Assembly (NCBI GenBank): GCA_030590945.1
Contig: JAUVBY010000001.1
Span: forward strand, 167-64,166
DNA from: Gammaproteobacteria bacterium
GTDB lineage: Bacteria; Pseudomonadota; Gammaproteobacteria; Arenicellales; Poriferihabitantaceae
DNA length: 64,000 bases
Direction: 5' to 3'
The notes below the pieces were generated by a model. That model worked only from the letters and a program-made list of their open reading frames with translations. It did not search any database and had not been told where the DNA came from. Position numbers and translations under genes: made by a program. Positions 4,655 through 24,004 of the stretch are shown piece after piece (the stretch's first letter is position 1; each line of letters starts with the position of its first letter).

Positions 4655-5986
<1,332 letters not shown>

Positions 5987-7347: not shown

Positions 7348-7370
7348 GCGATCAGTGCCATGAATCGAGA

Positions 7371-7865
7371 CTAAAATTGCCTGCCGATCGCGATCCCGTA
7401 CACCTCTTCGTTTTCATGGCCTTCAATGAAATCCAGGTTCGCCTGCGGCTCTATGACCCAGCCTCCGCCGAGTTCAAACTCGTAGCCGATCGAAGCTCGA
7501 AAAGTGTTCTCCCGCTCATTGCCCGGGTCTTTTCGGCCGACACCCGCACCGATGAACCATTCTTTATAGGGCCACCAGTGGGCAAATACGATTGCAAGCG
7601 TAGAATCTTTTTCTCGTTCAGCGCGTTCGATTACGCCCCCGAAAGACCAGGACTGGTTATAACGGTAGGAGTATTCGATTCCCAGCGTTTCATGATATTC
7701 ACCGTCTTCACGCGTAGCACCGGCAAACAGGCCCAGGATATGTTTGGCGTGTTCTTCTTCTGCGTTGTGCACTTCCTTAGCGTCGTGTTCGGCGGCGACC
7801 GCCCCGGTCGAGCTAAAACATAGCCAGATGGCAAAAAATACTTTAGCAAAGTTGTGATTTATCAA
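7371..7865 (-). CDS. Small outer-membrane beta-barrel-like protein with a His/Glu-rich N-terminus
   Basis: 164 aa with a signal peptide (..STGAVA|AEH) and a HDAKEVHNAEEEHAKH segment. Beta-strand patterning is present and the sequence ends in ..GRQF, a terminal aromatic residue as in OMPs. Confidence 0.45.
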   Translation of the reverse strand: MINHNFAKVFFAIWLCFSSTGAVAAEHDAKEVHNAEEEHAKHILGLFAGATREDGEYHETLGIEYSYRYNQSWSFGGVIERAEREKDSTLAIVFAHWWPYKEWFIGAGVGRKDPGNERENTFRASIGYEFELGGGWVIEPQANLDFIEGHENEEVYGIAIGRQF

Positions 7866-7988
7866 GATATTCCTGTCTGTTTATGGTGGCCAAAAGGTTA
7901 TTTTATACTGTTCCCGATCTTTTTTGTGGGTTCATTAGCCGTTTGTTCACAGTTAACACAGGGCGCGTAAAAAATAGCTAATATTGAT

Positions 7989-8654
7989 TCAAGGCTGATC
8001 AGGAAAAGTAGCTTCGAAGGCTTTTAAAAAGGCTTTTTTCTGCGCAGATGTCATACCGCTGCCTTGTAGATATTCGCGAATAAACGGATCAAGACCATAG
8101 CGCTCTAACAGTGCATAATCCTGCGCATAGTGAAGCATGTTCTTCAGGTTCTTTAGGCGCCTATTGACTGAGACAGGCATTTTGTAAAATTTTGTAGAGT
8201 GAAAATCTATCAGGGCAAATGATCCATCCCGCTGTACGATGATATTTCCCAGATGCAGGGCTTTAAAATAAACGCCGTTTTGGTGCAATTTAGCCAGATA
8301 AACAGCCAGGCGCCCTAGAATTTTATCGGTTGATGGTTCGTGCTCCCCCAGTTCACGAATACTCGGGCCGGGCACCAATGCATAGATCACGAGGTGCATC
8401 CCCGGGTCGCGGCACCGCATTATTTTTTCGACAACGACCGAATCAAAACCAAGTTGTGAGAGTCGCCGCGCGCAGCGTGCAAACCTGAGTCCGTAAGGCA
8501 CTATTCTGTCAGAGGAAAACAGTTTTTTGGGCCAGAATACTTTGACTATGGTCTGGTCGGGAGTCAAGTAAACGCGCGGTCCATCAGGGCTGTTCGAGAG
8601 CACACTGGCATTTTTAACCAGCTGTTCAAATTCGTTCCGGGAGCAGCTTTCCAT
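7989..8654 (-). CDS. Lipopolysaccharide kinase (Kdo/WaaP/InaA)-family protein
   Basis: 221 aa. The kinase-like catalytic region reads LHLGNIIVQRDGSFALIDFH. The family assignment is from recall. Confidence 0.5.
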   Translation of the reverse strand: MESCSRNEFEQLVKNASVLSNSPDGPRVYLTPDQTIVKVFWPKKLFSSDRIVPYGLRFARCARRLSQLGFDSVVVEKIMRCRDPGMHLVIYALVPGPSIRELGEHEPSTDKILGRLAVYLAKLHQNGVYFKALHLGNIIVQRDGSFALIDFHSTKFYKMPVSVNRRLKNLKNMLHYAQDYALLERYGLDPFIREYLQGSGMTSAQKKAFLKAFEATFPDQP

Positions 8655-8784
8655 GATGATTTAAATAAAATTTGTGCTGGAGAATGGATTCAGTTTTATA
8701 GGGCGCCAATAAACTGATTAAATGTTAACGCATCCTGTTCAGGTATAAAAGATCAGGGGAAAAATAGATGCCTATATCAGAAAA

Positions 8785-11244
8785 TCAACCGCGCATTTTT
8801 TCCGCTTTAGGATCGTACATCGCGCTGAGGCTTGCTTTGGCAGGGATACGTTTGCCGGCGACATCGATCTCAAACTGACTGGCATCGATGGCTTTTTTAT
8901 CGATGATGTCTTCACTATAGATATAACCCAGGCCTACCGAGCCCCCCAGGGTATGGCCGTAGTTGCCGGAGGTTAAATGCCCGACCAGTTTTCCGTTCTG
9001 TAAAATCGGTTCATGATGATAAAGCATCGCTTCGGGGTCCTGTAGCAGAAACTGAACCAGGCGTTTTTTCATCCAGCTTTTGCTTTCTTTCTGGGCGGCG
9101 ATGGCCTCGTGGCCGATAAAACCGCCAGCTTTATTCATATCGCAGACGAATCCCAGCCCCGCTTCTAAAGGTGTATCTTCATTGGCGACGTCATGCCCGT
9201 AATGTACGAATTTCTTTTCCATTCGACAGGAATCCAGCGCATGCAGGCCGGCGGGTTTTAGGCCGAATGACTCACCGAATTGCCACAAATAGTCAAAGGC
9301 ATGACGCGCCTGATCAACTGGAATATATAACTCCCATCCCAGTTCTCCAACAAAGGAAACGCGAAACGCACGACCGATGGCCGCGCCGACTTCCACATCC
9401 TGCCAGCTGCCGAATGGGAACGCCTCACTGGATAAATCAAGTTTTAAAACTTCGCTTAGTAATTTACGGCTGTGAGGCCCCATCACGCCAAACACCGCCC
9501 AGCTGTTGGTAATGTCGCTTACGAAACAATGCGCTTCATCAGGAATATGTTGCTGTAACCAATGCAAATCTTTGTGCGTCGTGGCCGTTCCACTAACTAC
9601 CCAGAATTGTGTCGGGGAAATTCGCGTCACTGTCAAGTCCGCCTCAATGCCGCCGTTTTCATTTAACCAGTGGGTGTACACTATTTTCCCCGGTGGTACG
9701 TCGATGTTCGCACTGCTGATACGTTGCAGACAGGCGCAGGCGTCGCGCCCTTCCACCTGGTATTTGGAAAAACCACTTTGATCAAACAAAACCACATTTT
9801 CGCGTGCCGCCCGGTGTTCATCAGCTGAATACTCAAACCAGTTCTGCTTGCCAAAGCTGTATTTGTAAACGGGCTCTATGCCTTCGGGGGCAAACCAGTT
9901 GGGCCGCTCCCAGCCCGCGGTTTCGCCAAAACAGGCATTTAGCGATTCCAGGCGTTCATGTATAGGAGAGTGGCGCACGTTGCGGGCGCTTTCATACTGA
10001 CGGAAAGGATAGTGGCGCGCATACAGCAGGCCCAGGGTCTCGCTGACCCGGTCCTGCAGGTAATGCTGTGTATTTTGCACAGGAAACATGCGGCGAATAT
10101 CGTTTCCCCACAAATCCATGGTGGCCTGACCGTGTTCCATCCATTCAGCCAACGCCAATCCCAGCCCGCCGGAGGTTTGAATGCCAACAGAATTCAGGCC
10201 GCAGGCTACGTAGAAATTCTTCAGTTCGGGGGCCTCGCCCACATGAAACTGATCGTCCGGTGTGAAGCTTTCCGGGCCACAAAAAAAGGTGCGCCAGCCC
10301 GCTTCCTGCAGCATTGGAACGCGCTGCATCGCATCTTCCAGTATGGGCATGAGTTGTTCTTCCATGTGGCCTTCGAGTTCATCGAAACAAAAATCTTCGG
10401 GAATGCCGTTTTGCCCCCAGGGAATCGCTTTTTGCTCGAAAGCGCCGACCATAATACTACCCGCATCTTCGCGATAGTAGGCGCATTTATCATGGTCTCG
10501 CAATACCGGCAGGGTCTCTGGTAGCCCCGGTAGCTTTTCGGTTACCGCATAATAGTGTTCGCAGGCATGCAGTGGGACCTTGACACCCGCCATTTGCCCT
10601 ATTTTTCGTCCCCACAGGCCACCACAGTTAACGACGAAATCAGCCTGAATATCGCCCTGGTCAGTCTCTACACCCGTGACTTTGCCCGCCTTGGTCTGGA
10701 TTCCCGTGACGTTGATACCCTCAATACATTTGGCGCCGCGCAGGCGCGCGCCTTTCATAAATGCCATCGTGGTGTCTATGGGGCTGGCGGTGCCGTCCTG
10801 TGCGACCCAGCTGGCGCCCAGCAAATCCTCCGTGCTTAGATAGGGGTAGCGTTCTTTGGCTTCCTGCGGGCTGATAATATCAACCTGTGTCACACCAAAG
10901 GCGTTGTTCATGGCCGCGACGCGCTTTAATTCTTCAAATCGATCCTGAGAATGCGCAATACTGAGCGATCCGACCTGCCTGAATCCGGTGGATTGGCCTG
11001 TTTCCTTTTCCAGTTCCGGCAACAGAGACATGGAATACTCACACAGGCGGGCATGGGTTTCATTGGCACGCATGGTGCCGACCAGGCCGGCAGCGTGCCA
11101 GGTGGTGCCGCAGCTAAATTGCTTACGCTCAAGCAGAACCACATCCTGCCAGCCCTGTTTTGCCAGATGATAAGCGACGCTGGCACCGATAACGCCACCG
11201 CCGATGATTACGGCCGAAGCCCGGGAAGGAAGGCTGGAAGTCAT
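8785..11244 (-). CDS. FAD-dependent oxidoreductase fused to a GcvT-like folate-binding domain (dimethylglycine/sarcosine dehydrogenase family)
   Basis: 819 aa. The N-terminal dinucleotide fold is VIIGGGVIGASVAYHLA and the flavinylation-type motif is TTWHAAG. The C-terminal half is aminomethyltransferase-like (FVGELGWELY). Confidence 0.85.
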   Translation of the reverse strand: MTSSLPSRASAVIIGGGVIGASVAYHLAKQGWQDVVLLERKQFSCGTTWHAAGLVGTMRANETHARLCEYSMSLLPELEKETGQSTGFRQVGSLSIAHSQDRFEELKRVAAMNNAFGVTQVDIISPQEAKERYPYLSTEDLLGASWVAQDGTASPIDTTMAFMKGARLRGAKCIEGINVTGIQTKAGKVTGVETDQGDIQADFVVNCGGLWGRKIGQMAGVKVPLHACEHYYAVTEKLPGLPETLPVLRDHDKCAYYREDAGSIMVGAFEQKAIPWGQNGIPEDFCFDELEGHMEEQLMPILEDAMQRVPMLQEAGWRTFFCGPESFTPDDQFHVGEAPELKNFYVACGLNSVGIQTSGGLGLALAEWMEHGQATMDLWGNDIRRMFPVQNTQHYLQDRVSETLGLLYARHYPFRQYESARNVRHSPIHERLESLNACFGETAGWERPNWFAPEGIEPVYKYSFGKQNWFEYSADEHRAARENVVLFDQSGFSKYQVEGRDACACLQRISSANIDVPPGKIVYTHWLNENGGIEADLTVTRISPTQFWVVSGTATTHKDLHWLQQHIPDEAHCFVSDITNSWAVFGVMGPHSRKLLSEVLKLDLSSEAFPFGSWQDVEVGAAIGRAFRVSFVGELGWELYIPVDQARHAFDYLWQFGESFGLKPAGLHALDSCRMEKKFVHYGHDVANEDTPLEAGLGFVCDMNKAGGFIGHEAIAAQKESKSWMKKRLVQFLLQDPEAMLYHHEPILQNGKLVGHLTSGNYGHTLGGSVGLGYIYSEDIIDKKAIDASQFEIDVAGKRIPAKASLSAMYDPKAEKMRG

Positions 11245-11544
11245 TATTTCTCCTGATGGTTGGAGGTTACTGAGTGCATGAATAATAGGCTAAAGCCTGG
11301 TTGAATCAAAGTAATGCCAAATTGGTTTTGTCAATACTAGCTATTTGTTTCAGATCAATATGGATTTTTCCCGACTGTGGGAAGCATCCTCGATGGCATG
11401 GTGGTTCTGGATATCTACCCATCTGGCGTTATAAATAGCCATGCGCTGGTACTATATAAACACGCGCTGAATTCCTACATTCAACCCTCGCAGAGTGCGC
11501 TTATTTTAACTGCCATAATCGAGGCAAAACCCGGAGATAAAGAG

Positions 11545-12663
11545 ATGTTGATCGGTGTCCCTAAAGAAATTAAGAATCACGAATATCGTGTTGGTATGAC
11601 CCCCGCCAGTGTGCGCGAAATGGTACATCATGGCCACGATGTGCTGGTGGAAACCAATGCTGGAGTAGGTATTGGTGCCAGTGATGATGATTATCATCAG
11701 GCAGGGGCCACGATTATTGCTACGCCCGAAGAAATTTTCGCTAAGGCCGGGATGATCATTAAGGTAAAAGAGCCGCAGGCGGTAGAGCGTGCAATGTTGC
11801 GTGAAGATCAAATTTTGTACACCTATTTACACCTTGCCCCGGACCCTGAGCAAACCAAAGATTTGGTGGACAGCGGCGCGGTTTGTGTTGCTTACGAGAC
11901 GGTGACTTCACCGCATGGTGGTTTGCCATTGTTAGCGCCGATGTCCAAAGTGGCCGGGCGGTTGGCCGTGCAGGCGGGAGCGCATTGCCTGGAGCAACCC
12001 AATGGCGGTCTGGGCATGCTAATCGGTGGAGTGCCGGGTGTGGCTCCCGCAAAAGTGACCATCATCGGTGGTGGTGTGGTGGGAACCCATGCTGCGCAGA
12101 TCGCGGTTGGTATGGGCGCTGACGTTTGGGTGCTGGATCGTAATCCGGAAGTGCTCGAAGCACACTGGCGACAGTTTGGCCGTGCAACCAATGCGGTATA
12201 TTCAACCCAGGATGCACTTGAAGAACATGTAACCAGCTCAGAGCTGGTGATCGGTGGTGTGCTGGTTCCGGGTGCTGAAGCACCCAAACTGGTAACCCGT
12301 GAAATGCTCACGCGCATGCAAAAAGGTTCTGTCATTGTCGATGTCGCAATCGATCAGGGTGGTTGTTTTGAAACTTCGCACGCTACCACACATGCAGACC
12401 CAACCTATGTAGTGGAAGATGTAGTGCACTATTGCGTGGCGAATATGCCGGGCGCGGTGCCTAAAACATCAACCTATGCGCTGAACAATGTAACCCTGCC
12501 TCATGCTTTGGCGCTGGCAGATAAGGGTTATAAGCAGGCGTTGGCGGATGATGTGCATCTTAGAGCCGGGCTCAACGTGATCCACGGCAAGGTGGTTTAT
12601 GAGCAGGTCGCACACGACCTGGGTTATGATTTTGTACCGGCTGAGACAGCGTTGGGGATTTAG
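11545..12663 (+). CDS. ald: Alanine dehydrogenase
   Basis: Starting at the ATG at 11545 (GGAGA 8 nt upstream) gives 372 aa beginning MLIGVPKEIKNHEYRVGMTP, with the NAD fold IIGGGVVGTHAA. The tracked ORF start at 11377 (GTG) adds 56 residues that look non-homologous. Confidence 0.92.
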   Translation: MLIGVPKEIKNHEYRVGMTPASVREMVHHGHDVLVETNAGVGIGASDDDYHQAGATIIATPEEIFAKAGMIIKVKEPQAVERAMLREDQILYTYLHLAPDPEQTKDLVDSGAVCVAYETVTSPHGGLPLLAPMSKVAGRLAVQAGAHCLEQPNGGLGMLIGGVPGVAPAKVTIIGGGVVGTHAAQIAVGMGADVWVLDRNPEVLEAHWRQFGRATNAVYSTQDALEEHVTSSELVIGGVLVPGAEAPKLVTREMLTRMQKGSVIVDVAIDQGGCFETSHATTHADPTYVVEDVVHYCVANMPGAVPKTSTYALNNVTLPHALALADKGYKQALADDVHLRAGLNVIHGKVVYEQVAHDLGYDFVPAETALGI

Positions 12664-12715
12664 GAATACTTCTGGCTTAACATGGATTGTTCGAAATGGC
12701 TAAACCCGAAAGGTG

Positions 12716-13483
12716 CTAGCGTATTTCTCGTTTATAGCTAAACAGGTCCGCACGGCCCTTGGTTGTGCGGACTTCTACAATTTTCTCGTTGACGGTGTAA
12801 GTTGAGCGATTCAGGACAACCACCGGCGTGCGAGGTTCTATATCCAGTTTGTTGGCCGTAATCTCATCACAGGCTTCTGCGGTGAGCGTTTCTTCTGCGC
12901 GAACAATCGGGATATCGTATTGATCAACGATTAATGCATAGAATAAATCAGGGATGTGGGTCTCTTCTTTTTCCAGACCCGGTACGAGTTCGGCTATCCA
13001 CCACGAATATTCTATAAATGTGGGTAGTTGTTGAGTGTATCCAATGCGCTCGATGTAAAGTAATTCGGTTCCTTCTTCGACTTCCAGTCGATGATAAATT
13101 TCTACTGGTGCCGTTCCAAGTCGTCGATCTGTGGTGACTTTACGGATCCTGACGTCTTCACCCTTTTCGTTCCCATAGGAAAAGAATCGAAACAAACTAT
13201 TATTAAAATCGATGCGTGATACGAATGTCCCTTTGCCCTGGTGGCGAAATAACAGGCCTTGCCATGCCAGGTTGTCGATTGCTTTTTTCACCGTGCCCTG
13301 GCTGACATTCAGCTCCTTTGAAAGGCGTGGTTCAGAAGGAATCAGATCGCCTGGCACGAGCTTGCCGCGCGTTATTAAATCACGAATATAATTTTCCACG
13401 CGCAAATATAACGGTTCCGTGCGGCGTTGACGAATGTTGCCGGAATTGAGGTAGCGCTCTGTTTCGAGTGGGTTTAATGACAT
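12716..13483 (-). CDS. GntR-family (HutC/UTRA-type) transcriptional regulator
   Basis: 255 aa. It has an N-terminal wHTH (PSEPRLSKELNVSQGTVKKAIDNLAWQGLL) and a C-terminal UTRA-like effector domain. It is divergent from the tct-xsc cluster. Confidence 0.85.
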   Translation of the reverse strand: MSLNPLETERYLNSGNIRQRRTEPLYLRVENYIRDLITRGKLVPGDLIPSEPRLSKELNVSQGTVKKAIDNLAWQGLLFRHQGKGTFVSRIDFNNSLFRFFSYGNEKGEDVRIRKVTTDRRLGTAPVEIYHRLEVEEGTELLYIERIGYTQQLPTFIEYSWWIAELVPGLEKEETHIPDLFYALIVDQYDIPIVRAEETLTAEACDEITANKLDIEPRTPVVVLNRSTYTVNEKIVEVRTTKGRADLFSYKREIR

Positions 13484-13502
13484 CGTTGTCCTGATTTTTG
13501 TG

Positions 13503-13531
13503 TTGACAGGCGTATTATACTGAATTATGAT
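13503..13531 (+). promoter_or_regulatory. Sigma70-type promoter for the tctA operon
   Basis: TTGACA (13503-13508), a 17-nt spacer, then TATGAT (13526-13531). A perfect 16-bp palindrome ACTCATATATATGAGT (13539-13554) lies immediately downstream and is a candidate operator. Confidence 0.55.
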
Positions 13532-13632
13532 TCGGTTTACTCATATATATGAGTTATATGATGTATCGCATATACGCGTATTATTTTTATCTTAAAGTGG
13601 CAGCAAACACTATATTGAATGAGATGTTGTAA

Positions 13633-15138
13633 TTGGATTTCCTGAACTACTTTGGCAACGTTTTTACGGTCTATCACATATCATTGTTGATAGGGGGTAC
13701 CTTTGCGGGGTTGGTTCTGGGAGCCTTGCCTGGCCTGAGCCCGACCATGGCCGTGGCTTTGATGATCCCCTTTACGTTTCACATGGAGCCAGCAGCAGGC
13801 CTGATTTTGCTGGGTGCTATGTACACCGCAACGGTTGCCGGAGGGGCGATTAGCGCAATCCTGGTTAATGTGCCTGGAGCACCGGCAAATATTGCGACCG
13901 CAATGGATGGTCACCAGCTTGCGAAACAGGGCCGTGCTGCCGAAGCGTTATATTATTGTTTTACGAGTTCTTTCATTGGGGGTGTGCTCGGAATATTTGT
14001 CCTCATATTTTTCACCCCTCCTTTAGCCGATCTGGCGCTTAAATTTGGCCCCACTGAATTATTCTGGATCGCTATCCTGGGTATTACCATCATAGGCACC
14101 ATAGGCAGCAGGTCTGTCATTAAAGGCTTGTTGTCGGGTCTGTTTGGCATTGCGTTGTCAACGATTGGGGCGAATCCGATGCTTGGTGAAGATCGTTTTG
14201 TATATAGTGAACACCTCGAGAGTGGTATTCATATCGTAGCAGCGCTTATAGGCCTGTTTGCGGTTCCTCAAATACTGACGCTAATTGAGGAGGCACGTAA
14301 AGACAAAAATACCTCTGTTCATGCGCTCGGAGAGTCAAAACTAGTTCGAAGCGTGGTTTATAACCTAAAGCGCTTCAAGGCTCTTACCATTGGTTCCCTG
14401 GTAGGCATTATTGTAGGAATAATTCCCGGAGCGGGGGGGCAAATCGCAGGGCTGGTAGCCTATGACCAGGCCAGAAAACTGAGCCGTAATCCTGAAAACT
14501 TCGGCAAAGGCGAACCCGATGGGGTCATCGCTGCAGAATCGGCGAATAATGCGATGGTTGGCCCCTCTTTGGTCCCATTGTTAACTTTGAGCATCCCCGG
14601 CAGCCCGACGGCGGCTGTATTATTGGGAGGGTTATTGATTCATGGCCTGTTTCCCGGGCCAGATTTATTCACCATCCATGCGGAAGTTACCTGGACGTTT
14701 ATTGATTCCCTGCTTGTGGCGCAAGTATTCATGCTGGTTATCGGGCTGATTTTGAGTCGCCACAGTGGCTGGATAATGAAAATACCCGGCCACTATATGG
14801 CAGCCACAATTTTTATACTCGCGGCATTTGGGACCTACAGTATTCAATCAAGCTACTCAGATGTGGTGGTGATGGCTACGCTGGGGGTGTTTATGTACTT
14901 TGCAGCCAAACTAGGATTTAGTCCGGCTCCTGTAGTTCTGGGCATAATTCTTGGTCCCATTGCCGAAGACAATTTTCTTCAGGGCAAGCTGATTGGTGAG
15001 AGTGGCGATGGTGTCTTTAGTTATTTTACGTCAGGCATGCTTAATATCACGATGATTATTTTGTGTGCTGCTTCTATTGCTTACAGCGTCTATACGGAAA
15101 CAAAGGCGCGTAAGATGCGAGCTTCGTTGATAAAATGA
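13633..15138 (+). CDS. tctA: Tripartite tricarboxylate transporter (TTT) large permease
   Basis: 501 aa polytopic membrane protein with a TTG start. TctA-like motifs are present (GALPGLSPT, IPGAGG). It is followed by small-subunit and Bug/TctC genes. Confidence 0.85.
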   Translation: MDFLNYFGNVFTVYHISLLIGGTFAGLVLGALPGLSPTMAVALMIPFTFHMEPAAGLILLGAMYTATVAGGAISAILVNVPGAPANIATAMDGHQLAKQGRAAEALYYCFTSSFIGGVLGIFVLIFFTPPLADLALKFGPTELFWIAILGITIIGTIGSRSVIKGLLSGLFGIALSTIGANPMLGEDRFVYSEHLESGIHIVAALIGLFAVPQILTLIEEARKDKNTSVHALGESKLVRSVVYNLKRFKALTIGSLVGIIVGIIPGAGGQIAGLVAYDQARKLSRNPENFGKGEPDGVIAAESANNAMVGPSLVPLLTLSIPGSPTAAVLLGGLLIHGLFPGPDLFTIHAEVTWTFIDSLLVAQVFMLVIGLILSRHSGWIMKIPGHYMAATIFILAAFGTYSIQSSYSDVVVMATLGVFMYFAAKLGFSPAPVVLGIILGPIAEDNFLQGKLIGESGDGVFSYFTSGMLNITMIILCAASIAYSVYTETKARKMRASLIK

Positions 15139-15596
15139 AAACATTTATATCAAGGGAGCGCCTGGCCGCTATTTATGCGCTTGTTGTCGGGCTTATATTA
15201 TTAGTCGCCTCATTTTACGGAACCGACCCTGAGGTCTATTTGTTTCCACGCATTACTGCGGCTTTTATAGCCGTGCTCGCCCTAATTCTCAGTTATGACG
15301 CTTTCACGCACGGTGGTGCTGGAGATAAACAGGAGCCCGCGCTGGTGGAATGGAAGGTCTTGTTGCCCGGCCTCGCTGTTGGCGCCATTTACGTGTTATT
15401 ACTTGAACGAGTAGGTTTTTACACCTGTTCGTTTTTTGCGTTTTTTGCGATTTGCATGATTTACGGAAAACGTAGTTTGTTTGATCCACAGGCATTTGCT
15501 TTAAAGCTAGTGGTCACAGTTGTTACCATGATTGTACTGTACGTACTGTTCTGGAAACTTCTAAACGTGCGCACGCCAACGGGTATTTTATTTTAG
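15135..15596 (+). CDS. tctB: TTT small membrane subunit
   Basis: 153 aa with four hydrophobic segments. It overlaps the tctA stop by 4 nt (ATGA). Confidence 0.75.
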   Translation: MKTFISRERLAAIYALVVGLILLVASFYGTDPEVYLFPRITAAFIAVLALILSYDAFTHGGAGDKQEPALVEWKVLLPGLAVGAIYVLLLERVGFYTCSFFAFFAICMIYGKRSLFDPQAFALKLVVTVVTMIVLYVLFWKLLNVRTPTGILF

Positions 15597-15654
15597 TGAT
15601 GCTGGGTCTACCCATAGGCTTTATTTTATAACCACAATACAGAGGAGAAAACCA

Positions 15655-16650
15655 ATGAGTCTACTAACTCAAAAATTTACTAAAGCTGGAATTACCATCG
15701 GAACCGGGCTATTGATGCTAGGCGTTTCGGTCGCCAATGCGGAGAGCTATCCGGACAGACCAATCGGCGTTATGGTGGCCTATAATCCAGGTGGAGCGAC
15801 CGATTTCCAGGCGCGCATTGCAACCCTGGCGTCCGCCAAGTTAGATAAAGACGAGAAGCCGATTTCCGTCGGCCAGCCAATCTATGTGACGAATAAACCA
15901 GGTGCGGGAGGACGCAAAGGCTGGAACTGGTTTGCATCAAAGGCGCCTCAAGATGGCTATATGCTGGCAGCCTATAATGTGCCGCATTTTATTGCCCAGT
16001 CAATTGTGTTTGATACCAAGTACAGTGTAGACAATCTTGAGCCAGTAGGTAATTGGGGTGCAGATCCGGCGGTATTGATTGTGGGTAAAGATAGCCAGTT
16101 CAATAGTGCAACCGAGTTGGTTGAATTCGCTAAAGCGAACCCTGATAAAGTAACAGTAAGCGGGGCGGGTAAATTTGTCGGTCATCATATTGCCTTCCTT
16201 CAACTTGAAAAAGCAGCTGGAATCGACCTCAAGTACGTTCCTGGAAAGGGAGGGGTTGGAGCAATGAAGCTCGTAAAAGGAGGTCAGGTCAAGGCAGGTT
16301 TTAACAATTTGTCCGACGCCGCACGAACAGCGGGTGATATAAAAATCCTGGCGGTGGCAGACCTGGAGCGACATGCTTTTCTTCCAGACGTGCCGACGCT
16401 CAAGGAATTGGGAATTGATGTCGATAATTCGAGTGTAAATTTTCGTGGCTTGATGGTTCCTAAGGGAACGCCTCAGGCTGTGATCGATCATCTTGCTACG
16501 ACAGTCCCGATTATGTTTAACGACAAAAAGACCCTGGGTAAAATGAAGCAAACCAACTCGCCCGTACACATCATGAACCGCGATGAAGTCCTCAAGATGT
16601 GGGCAGAGCGTCAAGCTGCGTTAACCGAGTTGCTGGCTGAATTGAAGTAG
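15655..16650 (+). CDS. tctC: TTT periplasmic substrate-binding protein (Bug/TctC family)
   Basis: 331 aa with a signal peptide (..VSVANA|ES) and the motif YPDRPIGVMVAYNPGGATD, typical of Bug-family receptors. Confidence 0.85.
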   Translation: MSLLTQKFTKAGITIGTGLLMLGVSVANAESYPDRPIGVMVAYNPGGATDFQARIATLASAKLDKDEKPISVGQPIYVTNKPGAGGRKGWNWFASKAPQDGYMLAAYNVPHFIAQSIVFDTKYSVDNLEPVGNWGADPAVLIVGKDSQFNSATELVEFAKANPDKVTVSGAGKFVGHHIAFLQLEKAAGIDLKYVPGKGGVGAMKLVKGGQVKAGFNNLSDAARTAGDIKILAVADLERHAFLPDVPTLKELGIDVDNSSVNFRGLMVPKGTPQAVIDHLATTVPIMFNDKKTLGKMKQTNSPVHIMNRDEVLKMWAERQAALTELLAELK

Positions 16651-16685
16651 AACTAAGCCCGGAACCTAACCTCCTTCAGTGCCTG

Positions 16686-18161
16686 GTGTACCAATCGGTG
16701 CGCCAGGCTGATCTCTCCTTATTGACCTGTATGGATCGCCTTATGCAAAGATCAACGATAGACGCGGTGAATGAAGTCGTTGCACGCGCGCGTACTGCAC
16801 AAAAGCATTACGCTGAATATACGCAGGTACAGGTAGATGAGGTAGTAACGGCATTAGGCTGGAGCATTATCAATCCTGATAATAATACTGCGCTAGCCAA
16901 AATGGCAGTAGAGGACACCGGGCTTGGGAATGTCAAAGATAAAATCACTAAAAACCATCGTAAAACGCTGGGGCTATTAAGAGATTTAAAAGGAGCGAAG
17001 TCAGTAGGTATTATCGCTGAGTATCCTGACCGCGGGCTCATCGAGATCGCACGCCCGGTGGGCGTAGTTGGCGCCATCGTGCCGTCAACGAACCCCGCTG
17101 CAACGCCAGCCAATAAGGCCATCAATGCACTCAAGGGCCGTAATGCGATCATCCTTGCGCCTTCTCCGAAGGGAGCAAACAGCTGTAGTCAGCTGGTTAA
17201 GTTGATGCAAGCGGAGCTGGAGCGCGTTGGCGCACCACCGGAATTGGTGCAGCGATTGCCATCACCTATTTCAAAGGAAGCGACGCAAGCAATGATGCAG
17301 GAAGTTGATCTGGTTGTTGCAACCGGCTCACAAAATAATGTGCGTGCGGCCTATGCCAGCGGCACACCCGCCATTGGGGTTGGTGCGGGAAATGTTGTCT
17401 CCATCGTAGACGAAAGCGCGGATATTAATTCGGCGGCAGAGAAGATTGTTATTTCCAAATCTTTCGATAATGCGACCAGTTGTTCTTCTGAGAACAACCT
17501 GATTATTGTTGATGCGGTTTATGATCTAACCATGCGGGCTCTGGCTGATAATGGAGCGGTGCTATTGAGTGACGAGGATCGCCAGCGCCTGCGCGATATG
17601 CTCTGGCAAGAAGGTAAGTTGAATCAGGATCTGATCGCCAAAAAGGCGCATCAAATGGCCGAGCTAAGTGGATTAAAGACCGCGGGGTTGTCCTCTGCAC
17701 GCATACTGCTGGTAGGAGCAACAGGTGTGGGGCCGGAACATCCATTTTCCGGAGAGAAATTGTCACCCGTTTTGACAGTTTATCGCGTGAAAGATTTTAA
17801 TGCCGCGACCAAAACAGCAAACAGGATCATGGACTATCAGGGTAAAGGGCACTCGATCAGTATCCATACTTCTCTGGATGAAAGAGCCTTGTACCTGGGG
17901 CTGAATCTGCCAATTTGCCGTGTCATCGTCAACCAGATCCATTGTTATGCAACGGGCGGTAGTTTTGATAACGGCCTGCCTTTTTCCTTGTCGATGGGTT
18001 GTGGAACCTGGGGCAAGAACAATATTTCCGAAAATCTAAACTATCGACACTATTTGAACACGACGCGCATCGTGCGTGAAATAAAACCACAAAAACCGTC
18101 ATTGGCGGAGATATTTGGTGCGTACTGGGAAGCGCACGCCATAGAACCGGTTATCGATTGA
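16686..18161 (+). CDS. CoA-acylating aldehyde dehydrogenase (AdhE-N/EutE-type ALDH); SauS-like candidate sulfoacetaldehyde dehydrogenase
   Basis: 491 aa. AdhE-type ALDH motifs are present (AVEDTGLGNVKDKITKNH; catalytic region SFDNATSCSSENNLI). The start is ambiguous: GTG at 16686 or ATG at 16731. The SauS assignment is inferred from context with the CoA ligase and xsc. Confidence 0.75.
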   Translation: MYQSVRQADLSLLTCMDRLMQRSTIDAVNEVVARARTAQKHYAEYTQVQVDEVVTALGWSIINPDNNTALAKMAVEDTGLGNVKDKITKNHRKTLGLLRDLKGAKSVGIIAEYPDRGLIEIARPVGVVGAIVPSTNPAATPANKAINALKGRNAIILAPSPKGANSCSQLVKLMQAELERVGAPPELVQRLPSPISKEATQAMMQEVDLVVATGSQNNVRAAYASGTPAIGVGAGNVVSIVDESADINSAAEKIVISKSFDNATSCSSENNLIIVDAVYDLTMRALADNGAVLLSDEDRQRLRDMLWQEGKLNQDLIAKKAHQMAELSGLKTAGLSSARILLVGATGVGPEHPFSGEKLSPVLTVYRVKDFNAATKTANRIMDYQGKGHSISIHTSLDERALYLGLNLPICRVIVNQIHCYATGGSFDNGLPFSLSMGCGTWGKNNISENLNYRHYLNTTRIVREIKPQKPSLAEIFGAYWEAHAIEPVID

Positions 18162-19684
18162 TGTCCTCTATGGGAACAGTTCGGGAGATTATCAATAAAG
18201 GTGCTGTCGCGCATCCTGATAAGACCTTTCTATGTATTGCGGAGAGTGGGCAGTTGCTCAGCTGGGCACAGCTTCATGCGCGCTGTACTGAGGTTGGTGC
18301 ATTACTTGATGAACAAAATGTCGCGCCGGGCGCAACCATCGCCTTTCTGCTGGATAATGGCTATTGGAGCACGCTGCTATTTCTGGGGGTGATGTATAGC
18401 GGGCGCGTCGTATTATCACTGAATGCGCTTAGTGGTAAGCAATCATTGTCGTATGTGATAAACCATTCAGACGCAAAACTGTTGTTTATTAATACTGCTT
18501 ATCAACAACAGTATTCGGAGGTGCTATCTTCGTTAGAGGCGCCAATTTCTATAATTGAAACGGATGAAAATCTGGGGCCGGTTTTGCCCTCATCCGCCCA
18601 TCTGGAGCCAAAGTTGCCGCAGATCAATTTACATGATATCGCCTTGCTCATGTATACCTCTGGTACAACGGGTCAGCCGAAAGGTGTGTTGCTTTCGCAT
18701 AAAAATGTGCTTGCCGGAGGGCGAAATACCATGCAGGCTCATCAGTTGAGTGACAAAGATATTGGATTATGCGTGCTACCGCTTTATCACATCAACGCGC
18801 AGATGGTATCTGTCATGGGGGCGCTAGTGAGTTATAGCCAGCTTGTTATGGCACGAAAATTTAGTGCGCGGCAATTCTGGCACGACATCGCCAACTACAA
18901 TTGCACCTGGTTTAGTATAGTGCCGACGATAATATCGTACCTGATTGAGCATGATGCCGAGGGGGTCGATGAGCTTACTATGCAAAAAATCAGAAAAAAA
19001 GTACGCTTTGGACGGTCCGCTTCAGCCGCACTGTCACCCACGAAACATCAGCAATTTGAAAAACATTTTGGCATTCATATCATTGAAACGATGGGCTTGA
19101 CCGAAACAGCTGCACAAATACTATCCAACCCCATGCCGCCAGAGAAAATTAAATATGGTTCACCCGGTATTGCTGTCGGAAATCAGGCCAGGATTATTAA
19201 TGAGGCGGGTAAAGAGGCAGATAAGGGTGTTATTGGCGAATTAATGGTTCGAGGCGATAACGTGATGTGCGGGTATTATAAAAATAAAGCCGCAACGAAT
19301 GAAGCGTTGGAAGCAGATGGCTGGTTACATACGGGTGACCTGGCATACTGTGATGATCAGGGGTTCTTTTTTATTACCGGGCGCCTCAAAGAGTTGATTA
19401 TTAAGGGCGGAGAAAATGTAGCACCGCGTGAGATAGATGACGTTTTATATCGGCACCCCGCCGTGCTTGAAGCCGCTGCTTTTGGGGTGGACGATGAGCA
19501 CTATGGTCAGGAGATTATGGCATGTGTGGCTTTGTGCCCGGGGATGCAGGCAACCGAGCAGGAATTACTTGAACTGTGTGAAGCCAATCTTGGCTCGTAT
19601 AAAACGCCTAAACGGGTACTGATTAGGGATGCCTTACCTAAAGGTCCATCCGGGAAAATTCAGCGGTTGAAGATAAGTGCATGA
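18158..19684 (+). CDS. AMP-forming acyl-CoA ligase; SauT-like candidate sulfoacetate-CoA ligase
   Basis: 508 aa with the AMP-binding signature MYTSGTTGQPKGVLLSH and a C-terminal ..GKIQR. It overlaps the upstream stop by 4 nt (ATGA). Confidence 0.8.
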   Translation: MMSSMGTVREIINKGAVAHPDKTFLCIAESGQLLSWAQLHARCTEVGALLDEQNVAPGATIAFLLDNGYWSTLLFLGVMYSGRVVLSLNALSGKQSLSYVINHSDAKLLFINTAYQQQYSEVLSSLEAPISIIETDENLGPVLPSSAHLEPKLPQINLHDIALLMYTSGTTGQPKGVLLSHKNVLAGGRNTMQAHQLSDKDIGLCVLPLYHINAQMVSVMGALVSYSQLVMARKFSARQFWHDIANYNCTWFSIVPTIISYLIEHDAEGVDELTMQKIRKKVRFGRSASAALSPTKHQQFEKHFGIHIIETMGLTETAAQILSNPMPPEKIKYGSPGIAVGNQARIINEAGKEADKGVIGELMVRGDNVMCGYYKNKAATNEALEADGWLHTGDLAYCDDQGFFFITGRLKELIIKGGENVAPREIDDVLYRHPAVLEAAAFGVDDEHYGQEIMACVALCPGMQATEQELLELCEANLGSYKTPKRVLIRDALPKGPSGKIQRLKISA

Positions 19685-19831
19685 ATGTATCGCTCACAAT
19701 TGGATGGAATTTGTCAGTGTGGCAGGTCCCGCATGTAAAGCATTTCAGGCATGCTGATGATCTGGTATGCCGAATAAAAGCTGGCTGGTACTATGGTGCC
19801 GAAAGGCATATCTATAAGCTCGGTTCCCGGT

Positions 19832-19851
19832 TTATTCTGCATGCAGAATAA
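19832..19851. promoter_or_regulatory. Perfect 20-bp palindrome upstream of xsc (candidate operator)
   Basis: TTATTCTGCA|TGCAGAATAA sits in the 290-bp spacer between the ligase gene and xsc, about 125 nt upstream of the xsc ATG. Confidence 0.35.
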
Positions 19852-19974
19852 TTATGACCTGGAATTCAAGTTCAACGAGTTGGGGTTTGCTCGGCCAAAA
19901 GCCCGAGCAGTAATGCATTTTGTTTGTACCCGCTCAGGTTTAATTATATACAACTTAGTTTTGGAGAAGTAACC

Positions 19975-21756
19975 ATGAAAATGACAACAGAAGAAGCCTT
20001 CATCAAGGTACTGCAAATGCACGGCATCGATCAGGCGTTTGGGATTATCGGCTCTGCGATGATGCCGATTTCCGATTTATTCCCCTCCGCGGGCATCCAC
20101 TTCTGGGATTGCGCGCACGAGTGTAATGCGGGGATGACCGCCGATGGTTATACGCGCGCGACCGGTAAGATGAGCATGGCGATTGCACAAAATGGCCCGG
20201 GTATTACTAATTTTGTAACGCCAATCAAAACCGCCTACTGGAACCATACCCCCTTACTATTGGTGACGCCTCAGGCGGCCAACAAGACCATCGAACAGGG
20301 CGGTTTTCAGGAAATCAAACAGATGTCGTTATTTGAAGACATGGTATGTTATCAGGAAGAAGTGCGTGATCCGAGCCGTGTGGCAGAAGTGCTCAATCGA
20401 GTGATCGAGAATGCGCGGCGTGGTTCCGCTCCGGCACAAATCAATTTCCCCAGGGATTTCTGGACCCAGGTGATTGATATTGAGTTGCCACAGATTGTGA
20501 AACTGGAGCGTTCACCAGGCGGTGAGAACGCGATTACGGCTGCGGCTGCGTTGTTATCTGATGCCAAATTTCCGGTGATCCTCAATGGCGCCGGCGTGGT
20601 GTTGGCTAACGGTATCGAAGCATCCCAGGCATTGGCTGAGCGTCTGTCCGCGCCAGTGTGCTGCAATTATCAGCACAACGACGCGTTCCCGGGCTCTCAC
20701 CCGTTGGCTGCGGGCCCGCTGGGTTACAACGGCTCCAAAGCAGCAATGGAACTCATCGCTAACGCGGATGTGGTTCTGGCATTGGGCAATCGACTCAATC
20801 CGTTCTCGACGTTGCCGGGTTATGGCATAGATTACTGGCCTGTCAACGCGAGCATCATCCAGGTGGATATCAATGCGGATCGCATTGGCCTGACAAAGAA
20901 AGTAGATGTGGCCATCCAGGGCGATGCGCGCCGCGTCGCGGAGCAAATCCTGGAGCAGTTGTCGGATACGGCTGGGGACGCAGGTCGTCAGACCCGCCTG
21001 GATATAATTGAAGGCACCAAATCCAGCTGGAAACATGAACTGGCCGCGATGGTGCATGAAGAAGACAATGATGAAGGGATTACCTGGAATCAGCGCTGTC
21101 GTGACAAGCATCCGGATCGCATGTCACCTCGGCATGCCTGGCAGGCGATTATGAAAGTGTTGCCTAAAGAGGCCATGATTTCATCTGATATTGGGAACAA
21201 CTGCGCGATTGGTAACGCTTATCCAAGTTTTGAAACGGGCAGGAAATATTTCTCACCGGGTTTGTTTGGTCCATGCGGCTATGGTTTCCCCGCCATTCTG
21301 GGCGCAAAAATTGGTCGCCCCGATATGCCGGCAGTAGGTTTTGCCGGCGATGGTGCCTTTGGCATTTCGATGAATGAAATGACCTCATGCGGCCGTGATG
21401 ACTGGCCTGCTATTACCATGGTGATTTTTCGCAATTATCAATGGGGCGCAGAAAAGCGCAATACCACGCTGTGGTACGATGATAATTTTGTAGGTACTGA
21501 GCTTGACCTCGATGTTCGCTACGATGAAATTGCTAAGGCCTGTGGCGTCAAAGGGGTTCAGGTTCAAACCATGGATCAGCTAAGCGACACGCTTGAAACC
21601 GCCGTGGCGGAACAGATGAACGATAATGTAACGACCTTTATTGAAGTTATATTAACCCAGGAACTGGGTGAGCCGTTCCGTCGTGATGCGATGAAAGCCC
21701 CGGTTGCGGTGGCGGGGATCGACCCGGCAGATATGCAACCACAGAAAATGGCCTGA
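19975..21756 (+). CDS. xsc: Sulfoacetaldehyde acetyltransferase (ThDP-dependent)
   Basis: 593 aa from the ATG at 19975 (GGAGAAG 8 nt upstream). The N-terminus MKMTTEEAFIKVLQMHGIDQAFGIIGSAMMPISDLF and the motifs AYWNHTPLLLVTPQAANKT and MVCYQEEVRDPSR match my recollection of Xsc. A ThDP motif is present (GDGAFGISMNE). Confidence 0.88.
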   Translation: MKMTTEEAFIKVLQMHGIDQAFGIIGSAMMPISDLFPSAGIHFWDCAHECNAGMTADGYTRATGKMSMAIAQNGPGITNFVTPIKTAYWNHTPLLLVTPQAANKTIEQGGFQEIKQMSLFEDMVCYQEEVRDPSRVAEVLNRVIENARRGSAPAQINFPRDFWTQVIDIELPQIVKLERSPGGENAITAAAALLSDAKFPVILNGAGVVLANGIEASQALAERLSAPVCCNYQHNDAFPGSHPLAAGPLGYNGSKAAMELIANADVVLALGNRLNPFSTLPGYGIDYWPVNASIIQVDINADRIGLTKKVDVAIQGDARRVAEQILEQLSDTAGDAGRQTRLDIIEGTKSSWKHELAAMVHEEDNDEGITWNQRCRDKHPDRMSPRHAWQAIMKVLPKEAMISSDIGNNCAIGNAYPSFETGRKYFSPGLFGPCGYGFPAILGAKIGRPDMPAVGFAGDGAFGISMNEMTSCGRDDWPAITMVIFRNYQWGAEKRNTTLWYDDNFVGTELDLDVRYDEIAKACGVKGVQVQTMDQLSDTLETAVAEQMNDNVTTFIEVILTQELGEPFRRDAMKAPVAVAGIDPADMQPQKMA

Positions 21757-21783
21757 CCGTATTCTTCTCGTTATATCCTACTT

Positions 21784-21808
21784 GCCGGGGCTTGCCCCGG
21801 CTTTTTTT
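21784..21808 (+). terminator. Rho-independent terminator of xsc
   Basis: GCCGGGG-CTTG-CCCCGGC followed by TTTTTTT (21802-21808). Confidence 0.85.
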
Positions 21809-21926
21809 GTTTCAGTCCGGCAGGAGCTTCCAAATTCATTTCTAGCCTGATAGCCCAGAGGCTGGCGCTCTGTTTTTTATCATTATGGTGTTGTGTGCTA
21901 TACTTGTATAGCAAATTAATTATATA

Positions 21927-22160
21927 GTGGCTACAATGTTGGCAATACGATTACCCGAAGCCCTGGAAAAGCGTCTGGATGCTCTAGCGAAAGCAACGGG
22001 CAGAACAAAGTCTTACTATGCCCGTGAGGCGATTGAAGAGCACCTGGATGATCTGGAAGATATTTATATTGCAGAAAAAGCGCTTGAGGATATTCGAGCT
22101 GGACGCGCAGAGGTGATTGATTCAGAAGAGATGTGGAAACGCCTTGGTCTGGAAGATTAA
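21927..22160 (+). CDS. Type II antitoxin, ribbon-helix-helix (RelB/ParD-like)
   Basis: 77 aa from a GTG start; an alternative ATG lies at 21936. The RHH-type N-terminus reads LAIRLPEALEKRLDALAKATGRTKSYYAREAIEEHL. It is followed by an overlapping RelE/ParE-like ORF. Confidence 0.8.
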   Translation: MATMLAIRLPEALEKRLDALAKATGRTKSYYAREAIEEHLDDLEDIYIAEKALEDIRAGRAEVIDSEEMWKRLGLED

Positions 22161-22413
22161 ATTTGATGCCCGTGTTGAGAGGGCGCTGAAAAAGCTAGAC
22201 AAGCAACAGCTGCAGCGCATCAGGCGTTTTTTAGACGACAGGATCGCGAAATCTGATGATCCTCGCCAATTTGGAAAAGCTTTAACAGGTGCGCTATCTA
22301 CGTACTGGCGTTACAGAGTAGGGAACTATCGGATTCTCTGTGACATTCAAGATCAAGAGATTACTATTCTGGTGGTTGATATTGATCATCGGTCAAAGGT
22401 ATATCGAAAATAA
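22144..22413 (+). CDS. Type II toxin, RelE/ParE family
   Basis: The homologous part begins (V)WKIKFDARVERALKKLDKQ.. and ends ..YRILCDIQDQEITILVVDIDHRSKVYRK. The likely TTG start at 22144 overlaps the antitoxin 3' end. The tracked ORF start at 22117 (ATG) is also possible. Confidence 0.75.
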   Translation: MVWKIKFDARVERALKKLDKQQLQRIRRFLDDRIAKSDDPRQFGKALTGALSTYWRYRVGNYRILCDIQDQEITILVVDIDHRSKVYRK

Positions 22414-22422
22414 TCTTCCTGC

Positions 22423-22812
22423 CTATCCGTCGTAGCCCTGAGCGTTTACATCCGCCAGGTTGTTTGCGGGCAGTAACCAGTTGTTTTGTTCCGACAGTTC
22501 TGCTCGGTAAATGACATCCTCCAGACCACGAACGTAACCGACGATATTGATTCGGGACAGGCTGGGGCATTCGTAACTAAGCATGGCGCGCACTGTGTCG
22601 CCTATAGCCTGAAGTTGCGTCGCATCGGGCCCATATATTTCGGGTCGTGACGTATCGATTGATATTTGCGGTACGCTATAACAATCCAGGCTGCGAGTCA
22701 GGCTAACAGTCTGGTCAATATCGTTGATGAGAAAGCGATCCGCCAGGACAGTTGTGGAAGTAAAGGCTAGCATTACCAGCGCGATCATAGACTTGTAGTT
22801 CATGGTTTTCAT
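22423..22812 (-). CDS. Secreted hypothetical protein
   Basis: 129 aa with a signal peptide (..TSTTVLA|DR) and no recognisable motif. Its ATG overlaps the upstream stop (TAATG). Confidence 0.5.
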   Translation of the reverse strand: MKTMNYKSMIALVMLAFTSTTVLADRFLINDIDQTVSLTRSLDCYSVPQISIDTSRPEIYGPDATQLQAIGDTVRAMLSYECPSLSRINIVGYVRGLEDVIYRAELSEQNNWLLPANNLADVNAQGYDG

Positions 22813-23564
22813 TATATTTTTACCCAGTTCCCATTTGCTTGCTGGCAGGCTTGAAATGTGCGCGCTTCGCGATAGTCATTATCCGCATGGGCTGGCAGTG
22901 TGATGGTCCGGCAAGCGGGGCTTTGCGAGGCGACCCGGTGAAATTGTGCCCCGTACGAAGCATCGCGTATGGCATTGCTTTGTGCCGATTGTTGAAAATC
23001 AATGGCCATTAAGGGTGCGTACAAAAACCCAGACGCCTTACCCTGTTCCGCAATTAAATACCAATTGCTGTCAACGACTCGGCCTGCTACTGGTACGCGC
23101 TTTCCCTGCGGTATGGTATGCGTGACAACATAATCAGTACCGGGCCCACCGCGAACATTTATATTAGTGGTCGGATGGTAGTAGGCGTTTACCAGTTCGA
23201 TCGGAGGTAAGCGATTGAGTGCAGGCTTTAAAGCATGACGGTATGGCCTCGCGGCATGCCGGTTAGTGCGGGACGGCTTTGCAGAATGTCTGCTATTGTG
23301 GGATGGCTTTGGCGTTGCTTGCTGTGTTTCAGTAAAATGTTGGCCGACCTTACCACCTGCCCAATACCCTGCGAGGGTACCCGCTGCAATGGCTGCGGTA
23401 CGCCCGCGCCCTCCGCCTATATTAGAGCCAATCACAGCGCCAGTGATAGCACCCACGCCTTTCCCGACATTTTCTTTGGTGAGTTCGGGCCAGTTTTCTG
23501 CATGGCCTGGCAACGCGGTTAACGATAAGAGGGTTAGGGCAGCGATTGCGTGACGTTTACTCAT
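22812..23564 (-). CDS. Secreted glycine-zipper / SH3b-domain protein
   Basis: 250 aa from the ATG at 23564 (AGGAGA 5 nt upstream) with a signal peptide (..ALPGHA|EN). A glycine-zipper segment (GAITGAVIGSNIGGGRGRTAAIAAGTLAGYWAGG) is followed by a basic linker. A bacterial SH3-like segment follows (NVRGGPGTDYVVTHTIPQGKRVPVAGRVVDSNWYLI). Confidence 0.6.
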   Translation of the reverse strand: MSKRHAIAALTLLSLTALPGHAENWPELTKENVGKGVGAITGAVIGSNIGGGRGRTAAIAAGTLAGYWAGGKVGQHFTETQQATPKPSHNSRHSAKPSRTNRHAARPYRHALKPALNRLPPIELVNAYYHPTTNINVRGGPGTDYVVTHTIPQGKRVPVAGRVVDSNWYLIAEQGKASGFLYAPLMAIDFQQSAQSNAIRDASYGAQFHRVASQSPACRTITLPAHADNDYREARTFQACQQANGNWVKI

Positions 23565-23723
23565 CTTGGTCTCCTGTATTTGCATGTTGTTGTTGGTATG
23601 CAAATACTAAGCTACACTAGATGAACGCGGTTTGAATTTTAACCAAACAGTTGCTGAACGCTGCAATTAGTTACCTTCAGTGTGCGCTTAAATCAGGTAA
23701 CAACCGGCTAAAAACTATATTTC

Positions 23724-23880
23724 GATACTACTGTCCGGTTTAATTTTCGTAGGATCACGATAAACGGCAGTACAACAATGTTTGCAGAAGACACTTATGT
23801 TTAGAGACTTAAAACCTAAATCCCGTTTTATCGTCATTCCCGCGAAGGCGGGAATGACGCTTTAACCGGACAGTAGTATC
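23724..23880. mobile_element. Palindromic MITE-like element
   Basis: The 20-bp terminal inverted repeats GATACTACTGTCCGGTTTAA (23724-23743) and TTTAACCGGACAGTAGTATC (23861-23880) match at 19/20. A nested imperfect inverted repeat is present (ACGATAAACGG / CCGTTTTATCGT). An internal 12-bp-stem hairpin CGTCATTCCCGC-GAAG-GCGGGAATGACG lies at 23832-23859. There is no ORF. Confidence 0.5.
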
Positions 23881-24004
23881 TCTGATTAAAAAATTTGGCC
23901 GTTTATATACGTTAAAGCTCATATAAATATGTCAGGGTATTGTAATTCGCTGTTTTGTTCTGTATCTTGGCGCGGTAATTAATTCGCCTGAAATAAAAAG
24001 TAAA

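Follow-up and report, generated by a model that had tools for sequence, protein, structure and literature searches.

A probable operon for sulfoacetate import and cleavage, combining a tripartite tricarboxylate transporter with SauS, an AMP-forming ligase and Xsc, in a marine gammaproteobacterium

Introduction

Sulfoacetate arises when sulfoquinovose and taurine, both very abundant organosulfur compounds, are broken down. In this report, we describe a predicted sulfoacetate degradation cluster at positions 12716 to 21808 of a gammaproteobacterial stretch of 64 kb (contig JAUVBY010000001.1, assembly GCA_030590945.1; this whole stretch is called the window, and all its positions are counted from its first letter), and compare it with the closest described systems. 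The canonical one is sauRSTU of Cupriavidus necator H16 (Weinitschke et al. 2010, as cited in PMC10413351). A second comes from Bilophila wadsworthia, for which Liu et al. 2023 (PMC10413351) report a tripartite tricarboxylate transporter (TTT), SauXYZ, whose binding protein SauZ binds sulfoacetate with a dissociation constant of 0.13 uM and discriminates against 3-sulfopropanoate and isethionate. In their genome-neighbourhood analysis, close SauZ homologues of alpha- and gammaproteobacteria mostly adjoin SauT and SauS, with Xsc nearby or elsewhere (PMC10413351). Such a hybrid of sauST with a TTT is explicitly described in metagenome-assembled genomes of Arctic sponge symbionts published in 2025 (PMC12625764).

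We propose, with a probability of roughly 0.8, that the cluster in the window is an operon by which a marine gammaproteobacterium would import sulfoacetate and cleave it to acetyl phosphate and sulfite. An earlier reading of the DNA letters (here the sequence-only reading) had suggested sulfoacetate chemistry with a TTT and a GntR regulator, and this is supported by family models for SauS and Xsc, by the context of the ligase and by a syntenic TctC. Its suggestion that the TTT replaces SauU, the importer of the major facilitator superfamily (MFS), likewise finds support and matches both papers (PMC10413351, PMC12625764); this replacement has hence already been described.

Results

SauS and Xsc

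The gene sauS (16743 to 18161, plus strand; alternative starts at 16731 and 16686) encodes a 472-amino-acid AdhE-type acylating sulfoacetaldehyde dehydrogenase, which scores 738.5 bits on the NCBIfam equivalog for SauS (NF047625, cutoff 600). The sequence-only reading had considered that the dehydrogenase might turn out closer to EutE/PduP, and this was checked and did not hold: the AdhE, EutE and PduP models range from 233 to 407 bits on this protein, all under their own cutoffs, with AdhE PRK13805 at 407.5 bits and EutE-type TIGR02518 at 343.6 bits, so that the SauS score lies far above the AdhE/EutE scores. The catalytic cysteine, C247 of the TSCSSE motif, is invariant among 12 diverse SauS-type sequences including those of Cupriavidus-type loci, and the nearest solved structure is an acylating succinate-semialdehyde dehydrogenase.

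Downstream, xsc (19975 to 21756, plus strand, 593 amino acids) encodes a sulfoacetaldehyde acetyltransferase that reaches 902.8 bits on TIGR03457 (cutoff 676.4) and 1003 bits on NF005713 (cutoff 620), carries all three domains of thiamine-diphosphate enzymes (TPP_enzyme_N, _M and _C), and is preceded by a ribosome-binding site, GGAGAAG, 5' of its ATG. Family membership of SauS and Xsc is established by these curated models, and the catalysis itself is predicted from sequence. The window xsc is 72 to 74% identical to xsc of alphaproteobacterial and deltaproteobacterial loci and 44 to 45% identical to xsc of the two other loci that join it to a SauZ-like TTT; by these identities, it is of a different Xsc lineage from that of the two TTT loci, and both lineages pass the Xsc model.

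The AMP-forming ligase

Between these two genes lies a sauT-like gene for an AMP-forming ligase (18161 to 19684, plus strand, 507 amino acids) with the Pfam domains AMP-binding (PF00501) and AMP-binding_C (PF13193) and the adenylation motifs YTSGTTGQPKG and PKGPSGKIQR. NCBIfam holds no SauT model, and the ligase at the SauT position of the Cupriavidus cluster likewise matches generic models only, in identical ranking; the generic database name is therefore uninformative on the substrate. To place the gene in context, we scanned species-level genomes with the SauS alignment (one genome per species), which gave 80 loci with 53 to 71% identical SauS, and the neighbourhoods of these loci were scored by tblastn. 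A homologue of the ligase sits directly 3' of sauS in 72 of the 80, spread over Gamma-, Beta- and Alphaproteobacteria, SAR324 and one Chthoniobacterales genome; two of the remaining loci have the ADP-forming SauCD instead, and most others end at a contig edge. The scan recovered the canonical order IclR-sauS-sauT-MFS in Cupriavidus numazuensis (L050) and on the Caballeronia plasmid pNK83 (L004), whose ligases at the SauT position are 46% and 42% identical over the full length, respectively, to the window ligase. In addition, a representative search returned a natural fusion of SauS with the ligase (P0259, 967 amino acids, from a low-G+C organism). Among solved structures, the closest relatives of the window ligase are oxalate-CoA ligases and malonyl-CoA synthetase, whose substrates are small dianionic acids resembling sulfoacetate. 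The adjacency to sauS, the identity to the canonical clusters and this fusion support the view that the window ligase is not an ordinary fatty-acyl ligase, and it would act on sulfoacetate.

Another long protein with a SauS-like domain, P0270 (971 amino acids), was also seen; there the domain scores 515 bits, below the cutoff, and an unrelated N-terminal domain of about 500 amino acids precedes it, in a halophile-like acidic proteome.

The transporter and its distribution near sauS

Directly 5' of sauS, all on the plus strand, are the three TTT components: tctA (13633 to 15138), the large membrane subunit equivalent to one of SauX/SauY (Pfam TctA PF01970, 452 bits); tctB (15135 to 15596), the small membrane subunit (PF07331); and tctC (15655 to 16650), a SauZ-like periplasmic binding protein (PF03401) whose translation shows an N-terminal signal peptide ending in ...VANA/ES. 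This complete arrangement is shared by the 23 of 80 species-level loci that carry this TctC lineage, and with it the five-gene core tctA-tctB-tctC-sauS-ligase. To the TctC of these gamma- and alphaproteobacterial loci, the window TctC is 53 to 84% identical (61% for Ruegeria, L005, and 58 to 62% for the Rhodobacterales), and the window TctA is 56 to 84% identical to their TctA. Identity falls to only 31% with the TctC of the Azospirillum sau cluster and to 27% with an unrelated one, which places the window TctC in one specific TTT lineage. Searching for homologues of the Ruegeria TctC gave only Ruegeria, Leisingera and close relatives (Falsiruegeria, Tropicibacter), at identities of at least 87%. 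By analogy with SauZ, TctC of the window may bind sulfoacetate.

The transporters around sauS are diverse. Besides the 23 loci with the window's own lineage (TctC at least 50% identical, order tctA-B-C-sauS-ligase), 23 have a different Bug-type binding protein adjoining sauS, 11 the Azospirillum TTT lineage and 6 the MFS protein SauU (one of them together with an Azospirillum-type TTT); no transporter was seen near sauS in 18. The Bug-type loci are mainly betaproteobacterial (e.g., L021, L023, L024, L041, L047, L080, L081 and L084) and have a lone binding protein 5' of sauS that is 28 to 35% identical to the window TctC, with no TctA match beside it in most of them; it may be an orphan binding protein that serves a distant TctAB.

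Two Candidatus Pelagibacter loci (L065, L079) hold the same tctA-tctC-sauS-ligase module with a TctC 69% identical to that of the window, which suggests sulfoacetate use in some SAR11 lineages.

Among close relatives of the window, L087 and L088 (TctC 89% identical) show an identical arrangement, consisting of the alanine dehydrogenase gene ald, the GntR gene, the five-gene core, a spacer of 291 bp and xsc; close relatives keep the cluster genes at 79 to 98% identity. Among named genomes, Ca. Poriferihabitaceae (Arenicellales; a sponge-associated family), Cocleimonas and Arenicella are the nearest. The cluster is real and intact, and as the gene order recurs in independent contigs, it is not a chance arrangement.

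Gene organisation

The seven-gene layout of the sequence-only reading, with a divergent GntR gene followed by tctABC, the dehydrogenase, the ligase and xsc, was confirmed by the map of open reading frames (ORFs) together with Pfam and NCBIfam, and all seven frames are intact and full length against the family models. The start codons of sauS (16743), the ligase (18161) and xsc (19975) were taken from public gene calls on the 67-kb contig, and the TTG start of tctA lines up with the starts of its orthologues. One detail had to be moved: the ATGA overlap that had been given to the dehydrogenase and the ligase joins tctA and tctB (15135 to 15138), and the dehydrogenase and the ligase meet at TTGATG, where the stop TGA (18159 to 18161) shares a single base with the ATG at 18161. 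The ligase-xsc spacer, previously given as 290 bp, has exactly that length (19685 to 19974, plus strand) with the xsc ATG at 19975. The terminator claimed behind xsc also stood, as the best terminator-like site of the region: it consists of GCCGGGGCTTGCCCCGGC followed by TTTTTTTG (21784 to 21808, plus strand), that is, a hairpin with a 7-bp stem entirely of G+C and a T-run.

The GntR regulator and its predicted operator

The divergent gene (12716 to 13483, minus strand) encodes a HutC-subfamily GntR regulator of 255 amino acids with the GntR helix-turn-helix (PF00392) and UTRA (PF07702) domains; it reached no specific NCBIfam equivalog. Homologues with 47 to 74% identity stand divergent, 5' of tctA, in 10 gammaproteobacterial loci. 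The best promoter-like match of the region, TTGACA-17-TATGAT (13503 to 13531, plus strand), lies 5' of tctA and agrees with a sigma-70-like promoter at 11 of 12 positions, which is a prediction only, as the promoter-like match total is no higher than in shuffled sequence. Just 3' of its -10 hexamer is a perfect 16-bp palindrome, ACTCATATATATGAGT (13539 to 13554, no strand assigned), which occurs once in the window. Its core, CTCATNTANATGAG, recurs in the GntR-tctA intergenic regions of L007, L008, L009, L014, L015, L048, L049, L087 and L088; L012, L013 and L027 carry variants of it. Every locus with a GntR homologue thus has the palindrome or a close variant in otherwise divergent intergenic regions, and the core is absent from the other 81 loci. 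The palindrome is, by this conservation, a phylogenetic footprint of a predicted GntR operator. Because it lies directly 3' of the tctA promoter, its position predicts repression, and sulfoacetate would be the inducer. The accessible text of the published accounts of the hybrid clusters (PMC10413351, PMC12625764) contains no mention of a HutC-type GntR regulator.

The ligase-xsc spacer

The 290-bp spacer shows no canonical terminator, no canonical promoter and no convincing small ORF, its RNA fold is unremarkable (z = -0.94), and no Rfam match was found in positions 11000 to 24000, including no thiamine-pyrophosphate riboswitch 5' of xsc. A non-coding block at about 19750 to 19833 is 80 to 83% identical to its counterparts in L087 and L088, against 33 to 57% in the flanking spacer. 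Two candidate elements of the spacer were rejected. A perfect 20-bp palindrome (19832 to 19851), unique in the window, was considered as a conserved operator; it is not kept in the close relatives, is absent from all other loci and is probably not functional. A sigma-54 promoter in the conserved block was dismissed because its GG-GC spacing is off by one and its -12 element is not kept in L087.

We see an even chance that this GntR is a sulfoacetate-responsive repressor not characterised before, taking the place of the IclR type, with the operator ACTCATATATATGAGT kept across Arenicellales, Cocleimonas and other gammaproteobacterial lineages, and that the spacer block of about 80 bp provides a second, independent control of xsc.

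Proposed pathway

In the pathway that we propose, the HutC-type GntR would, without substrate, sit on its operator immediately 3' of the tctA promoter and block transcription. With sulfoacetate available, periplasmic TctC would capture it and TctAB would import it; the AMP-forming ligase would convert sulfoacetate, ATP and CoA to sulfoacetyl-CoA, and SauS would reduce this with NAD(P)H to sulfoacetaldehyde. Xsc, a thiamine-diphosphate enzyme, would then use phosphate to cleave sulfoacetaldehyde, yielding acetyl phosphate and sulfite. Conversion of acetyl phosphate (by Pta or AckA) and disposal of sulfite would be encoded beyond the 64-kb window.

Weighing the alternatives

Several observations weigh against sulfoacetate import and cleavage as the function of this cluster. 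The sequence-only reading had noted that the cluster lacks pta and sulfite-handling genes, and this absence holds across the whole window: among its scanned ORFs of at least 150 amino acids (overlapping shadow ORFs skipped), no phosphate acetyltransferase, TauE/SafE-type exporter or sulfite dehydrogenase was found, so these functions must be encoded elsewhere. The link to the Bilophila SauZ family, in which TctC is placed by taxa, gene order and identity levels, is indirect. The ligase is assigned by its context, and a 51%-identical ligase in L003 sits with 2-oxoacid:ferredoxin oxidoreductase genes and without sauS, which means that sequence similarity alone leaves the substrate unfixed. In the species scan, xsc is nearby in only 2 of the 23 SauZ-like TTT loci, and, across the 290-bp spacer, co-transcription of xsc with the upstream genes is a tentative prediction.

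Some of these points would also suit a different pathway, which we regard as unlikely, in which the transporter, dehydrogenase and ligase handle oxalate (oxalyl-CoA to glyoxylate), malonate (malonyl-CoA to malonate semialdehyde) or another sulfonate such as 3-sulfopropionate, with xsc a mere neighbour that serves taurine or isethionate. The best solved-structure matches of the ligase are oxalate-CoA ligases and malonyl-CoA synthetase; the L003 ligase occurs without sauS, xsc is 290 bp away and absent from most SauZ-like TTT loci, and just upstream stands a gene for alanine dehydrogenase, as is typical of taurine pathways. Against this, the dehydrogenase passes the SauS-specific equivalog cutoff with the generic acylating dehydrogenase models far lower, and the product of SauS is exactly the substrate of Xsc. 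The binding protein SauZ of Bilophila, moreover, discriminates against 3-sulfopropanoate and isethionate (PMC10413351). In 26 of the 80 loci, xsc is found no more than 10 kb from sauS, its adjacency is kept in the close relatives, and the window has no tpa, tauXY, iseJ or tauABC.

Since acylating aldehyde dehydrogenases are reversible, the cluster might alternatively run in the oxidative direction, with SauS converting sulfoacetaldehyde from another sulfonate to sulfoacetyl-CoA and sulfoacetate being formed and excreted. Some marine bacteria excrete taurine-derived sulfoacetate via SafD. Such a direction is hard to reconcile with a TTT, a binding-protein-dependent importer, with an AMP-forming ligase, which is effectively irreversible, and with an Xsc in the same cluster that consumes sulfoacetaldehyde; the window also has neither a source pathway for sulfoacetaldehyde nor an exporter of the SafD or SafE type, and we hold it to be highly improbable. 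The same very low probability applies to the idea that the cluster has decayed or fallen silent and has no current function, as might be suspected from the distance of Pta and sulfite handling and from a ParDE toxin-antitoxin pair immediately downstream, which hints at local rearrangement; all seven frames are intact and full length with their catalytic motifs kept, close relatives retain the genes at 79 to 98% identity, and the predicted promoter, operator and terminator are intact. Import of sulfoacetate and its cleavage through sulfoacetyl-CoA and sulfoacetaldehyde is the reading that we prefer.

Surroundings of the cluster

On the 5' side, ald (11377 to 12663, plus strand) adjoins the cluster in the window and in its close relatives, and the window has no taurine:pyruvate aminotransferase despite ald. 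In the betaproteobacterial loci L026, L044, L052, L053, L057 and L060, an ald 68 to 70% identical shares the locus with xsc and sauS, and in L053 and L060 it is directly upstream of xsc.

On the 3' side, directly behind the xsc terminator, an ORF for a ribbon-helix-helix antitoxin-like protein precedes a ParE toxin gene (PF05016; together 21937 to 22413, plus strand). This ParDE pair is uncalled at that position in L087 and L088 and therefore looks like a local insertion. A rhodanese-metallo-beta-lactamase fusion, persulfide dioxygenase-like, is encoded 4 kb 3' of xsc (25879 to 27228, plus strand). Further on (27315 to 47646 and 45925 to 58668) are genes for methylated-amine and osmolyte catabolism and for a [NiFe] hydrogenase: the former comprise an MttB-family methyltransferase, two dimethylglycine dehydrogenase-like proteins, a corrinoid protein, a GMC choline-dehydrogenase-like protein and a betaine-aldehyde-type aldehyde dehydrogenase, and the latter is accompanied by the maturation genes hypB, hypD, hypE and hypF.

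The ligase of L003 (positions 5271 to 7082) has 603 amino acids with a duplicated C-terminal domain. Its neighbours, which span 158 to 11470, include a GntR(FCD) regulator, a GltD-like ferredoxin protein, three 2-oxoacid:ferredoxin oxidoreductase subunits, an unrelated TctCBA and an MFS gene. A SauZ-like TctC beside this ligase was considered and rejected, as the L003 TctC is only 27% identical to that of the window. A sister of the L003 ligase bears the JGI label 'sulfoacetate-CoA ligase'; in L003, a ligase of this clade may serve another pathway.

Discussion

Clusters of this kind show which marine bacteria can recycle the sulfur and carbon of sulfoacetate, among them gammaproteobacteria associated with sponges and even some Pelagibacter. 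For annotation, the names 'aldehyde dehydrogenase family protein', 'AMP-binding protein' and 'Bug family substrate binding protein' gain specific roles. The cluster type is already published, in 2023 (PMC10413351) and 2025 (PMC12625764), and knowledge of the pathway is unchanged. The present analysis makes modest additions, namely a conserved predicted GntR operator that can be tested, the directly attached xsc, and the survey of transporter alternatives around sauS-sauT.

Among the systems compared, the Azospirillum plasmid cluster pta-tctCBA-sauS-sauCD-soeABC-xsc (L006, L078) has a TTT, a SauS 57% identical to that of the window and an Xsc of the same lineage (73% identical in L078). Unlike the window, it uses an ADP-forming ligase, and its TctC, 31% identical, belongs to another TTT lineage; it also encodes Pta and a SoeABC-type sulfite dehydrogenase, both missing from the window. 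In the sauXYZ-sauS-sauCD-tauF-iseGH cluster of B. wadsworthia (PMC10413351), a TTT with a sulfoacetate-binding protein is again present and SauS reduces sulfoacetyl-CoA, as proposed for the window. The ligase there is the ADP-forming SauCD, whereas that of the window is AMP-forming; sulfoacetaldehyde is turned into isethionate, which the glycyl-radical enzyme IseG cleaves in place of Xsc, in support of anaerobic respiration (PMC10413351).

The sauRSTU system performs the same two-step chemistry that we propose, with an AMP-forming ligase followed by acylating SauS and cleavage by Xsc, and the window SauS is 59% and 55% identical to those of C. numazuensis (L050) and Caballeronia (L004), respectively. 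It differs in its uptake by the MFS protein SauU and in its IclR-type regulator, in contrast to the TTT and the GntR/HutC regulator of the window, and the L050 and L004 loci contain no xsc.

Closest of all in composition are the hybrid clusters of sauST with a TTT, which (PMC10413351, PMC12625764) have in common with the window a TTT importer, SauS and the AMP-forming SauT, with Xsc often close by or encoded at another site of the genome. Ruegeria (L005) and 22 further loci have the genes in exactly the order of the window, tctA-tctB-tctC-sauS-sauT. What sets the window apart from these hybrids is an xsc directly downstream, which only 2 of the 23 SauZ-like loci at species level also have and which its relatives L087 and L088 share, together with a HutC-type GntR regulator and its conserved palindromic predicted operator.

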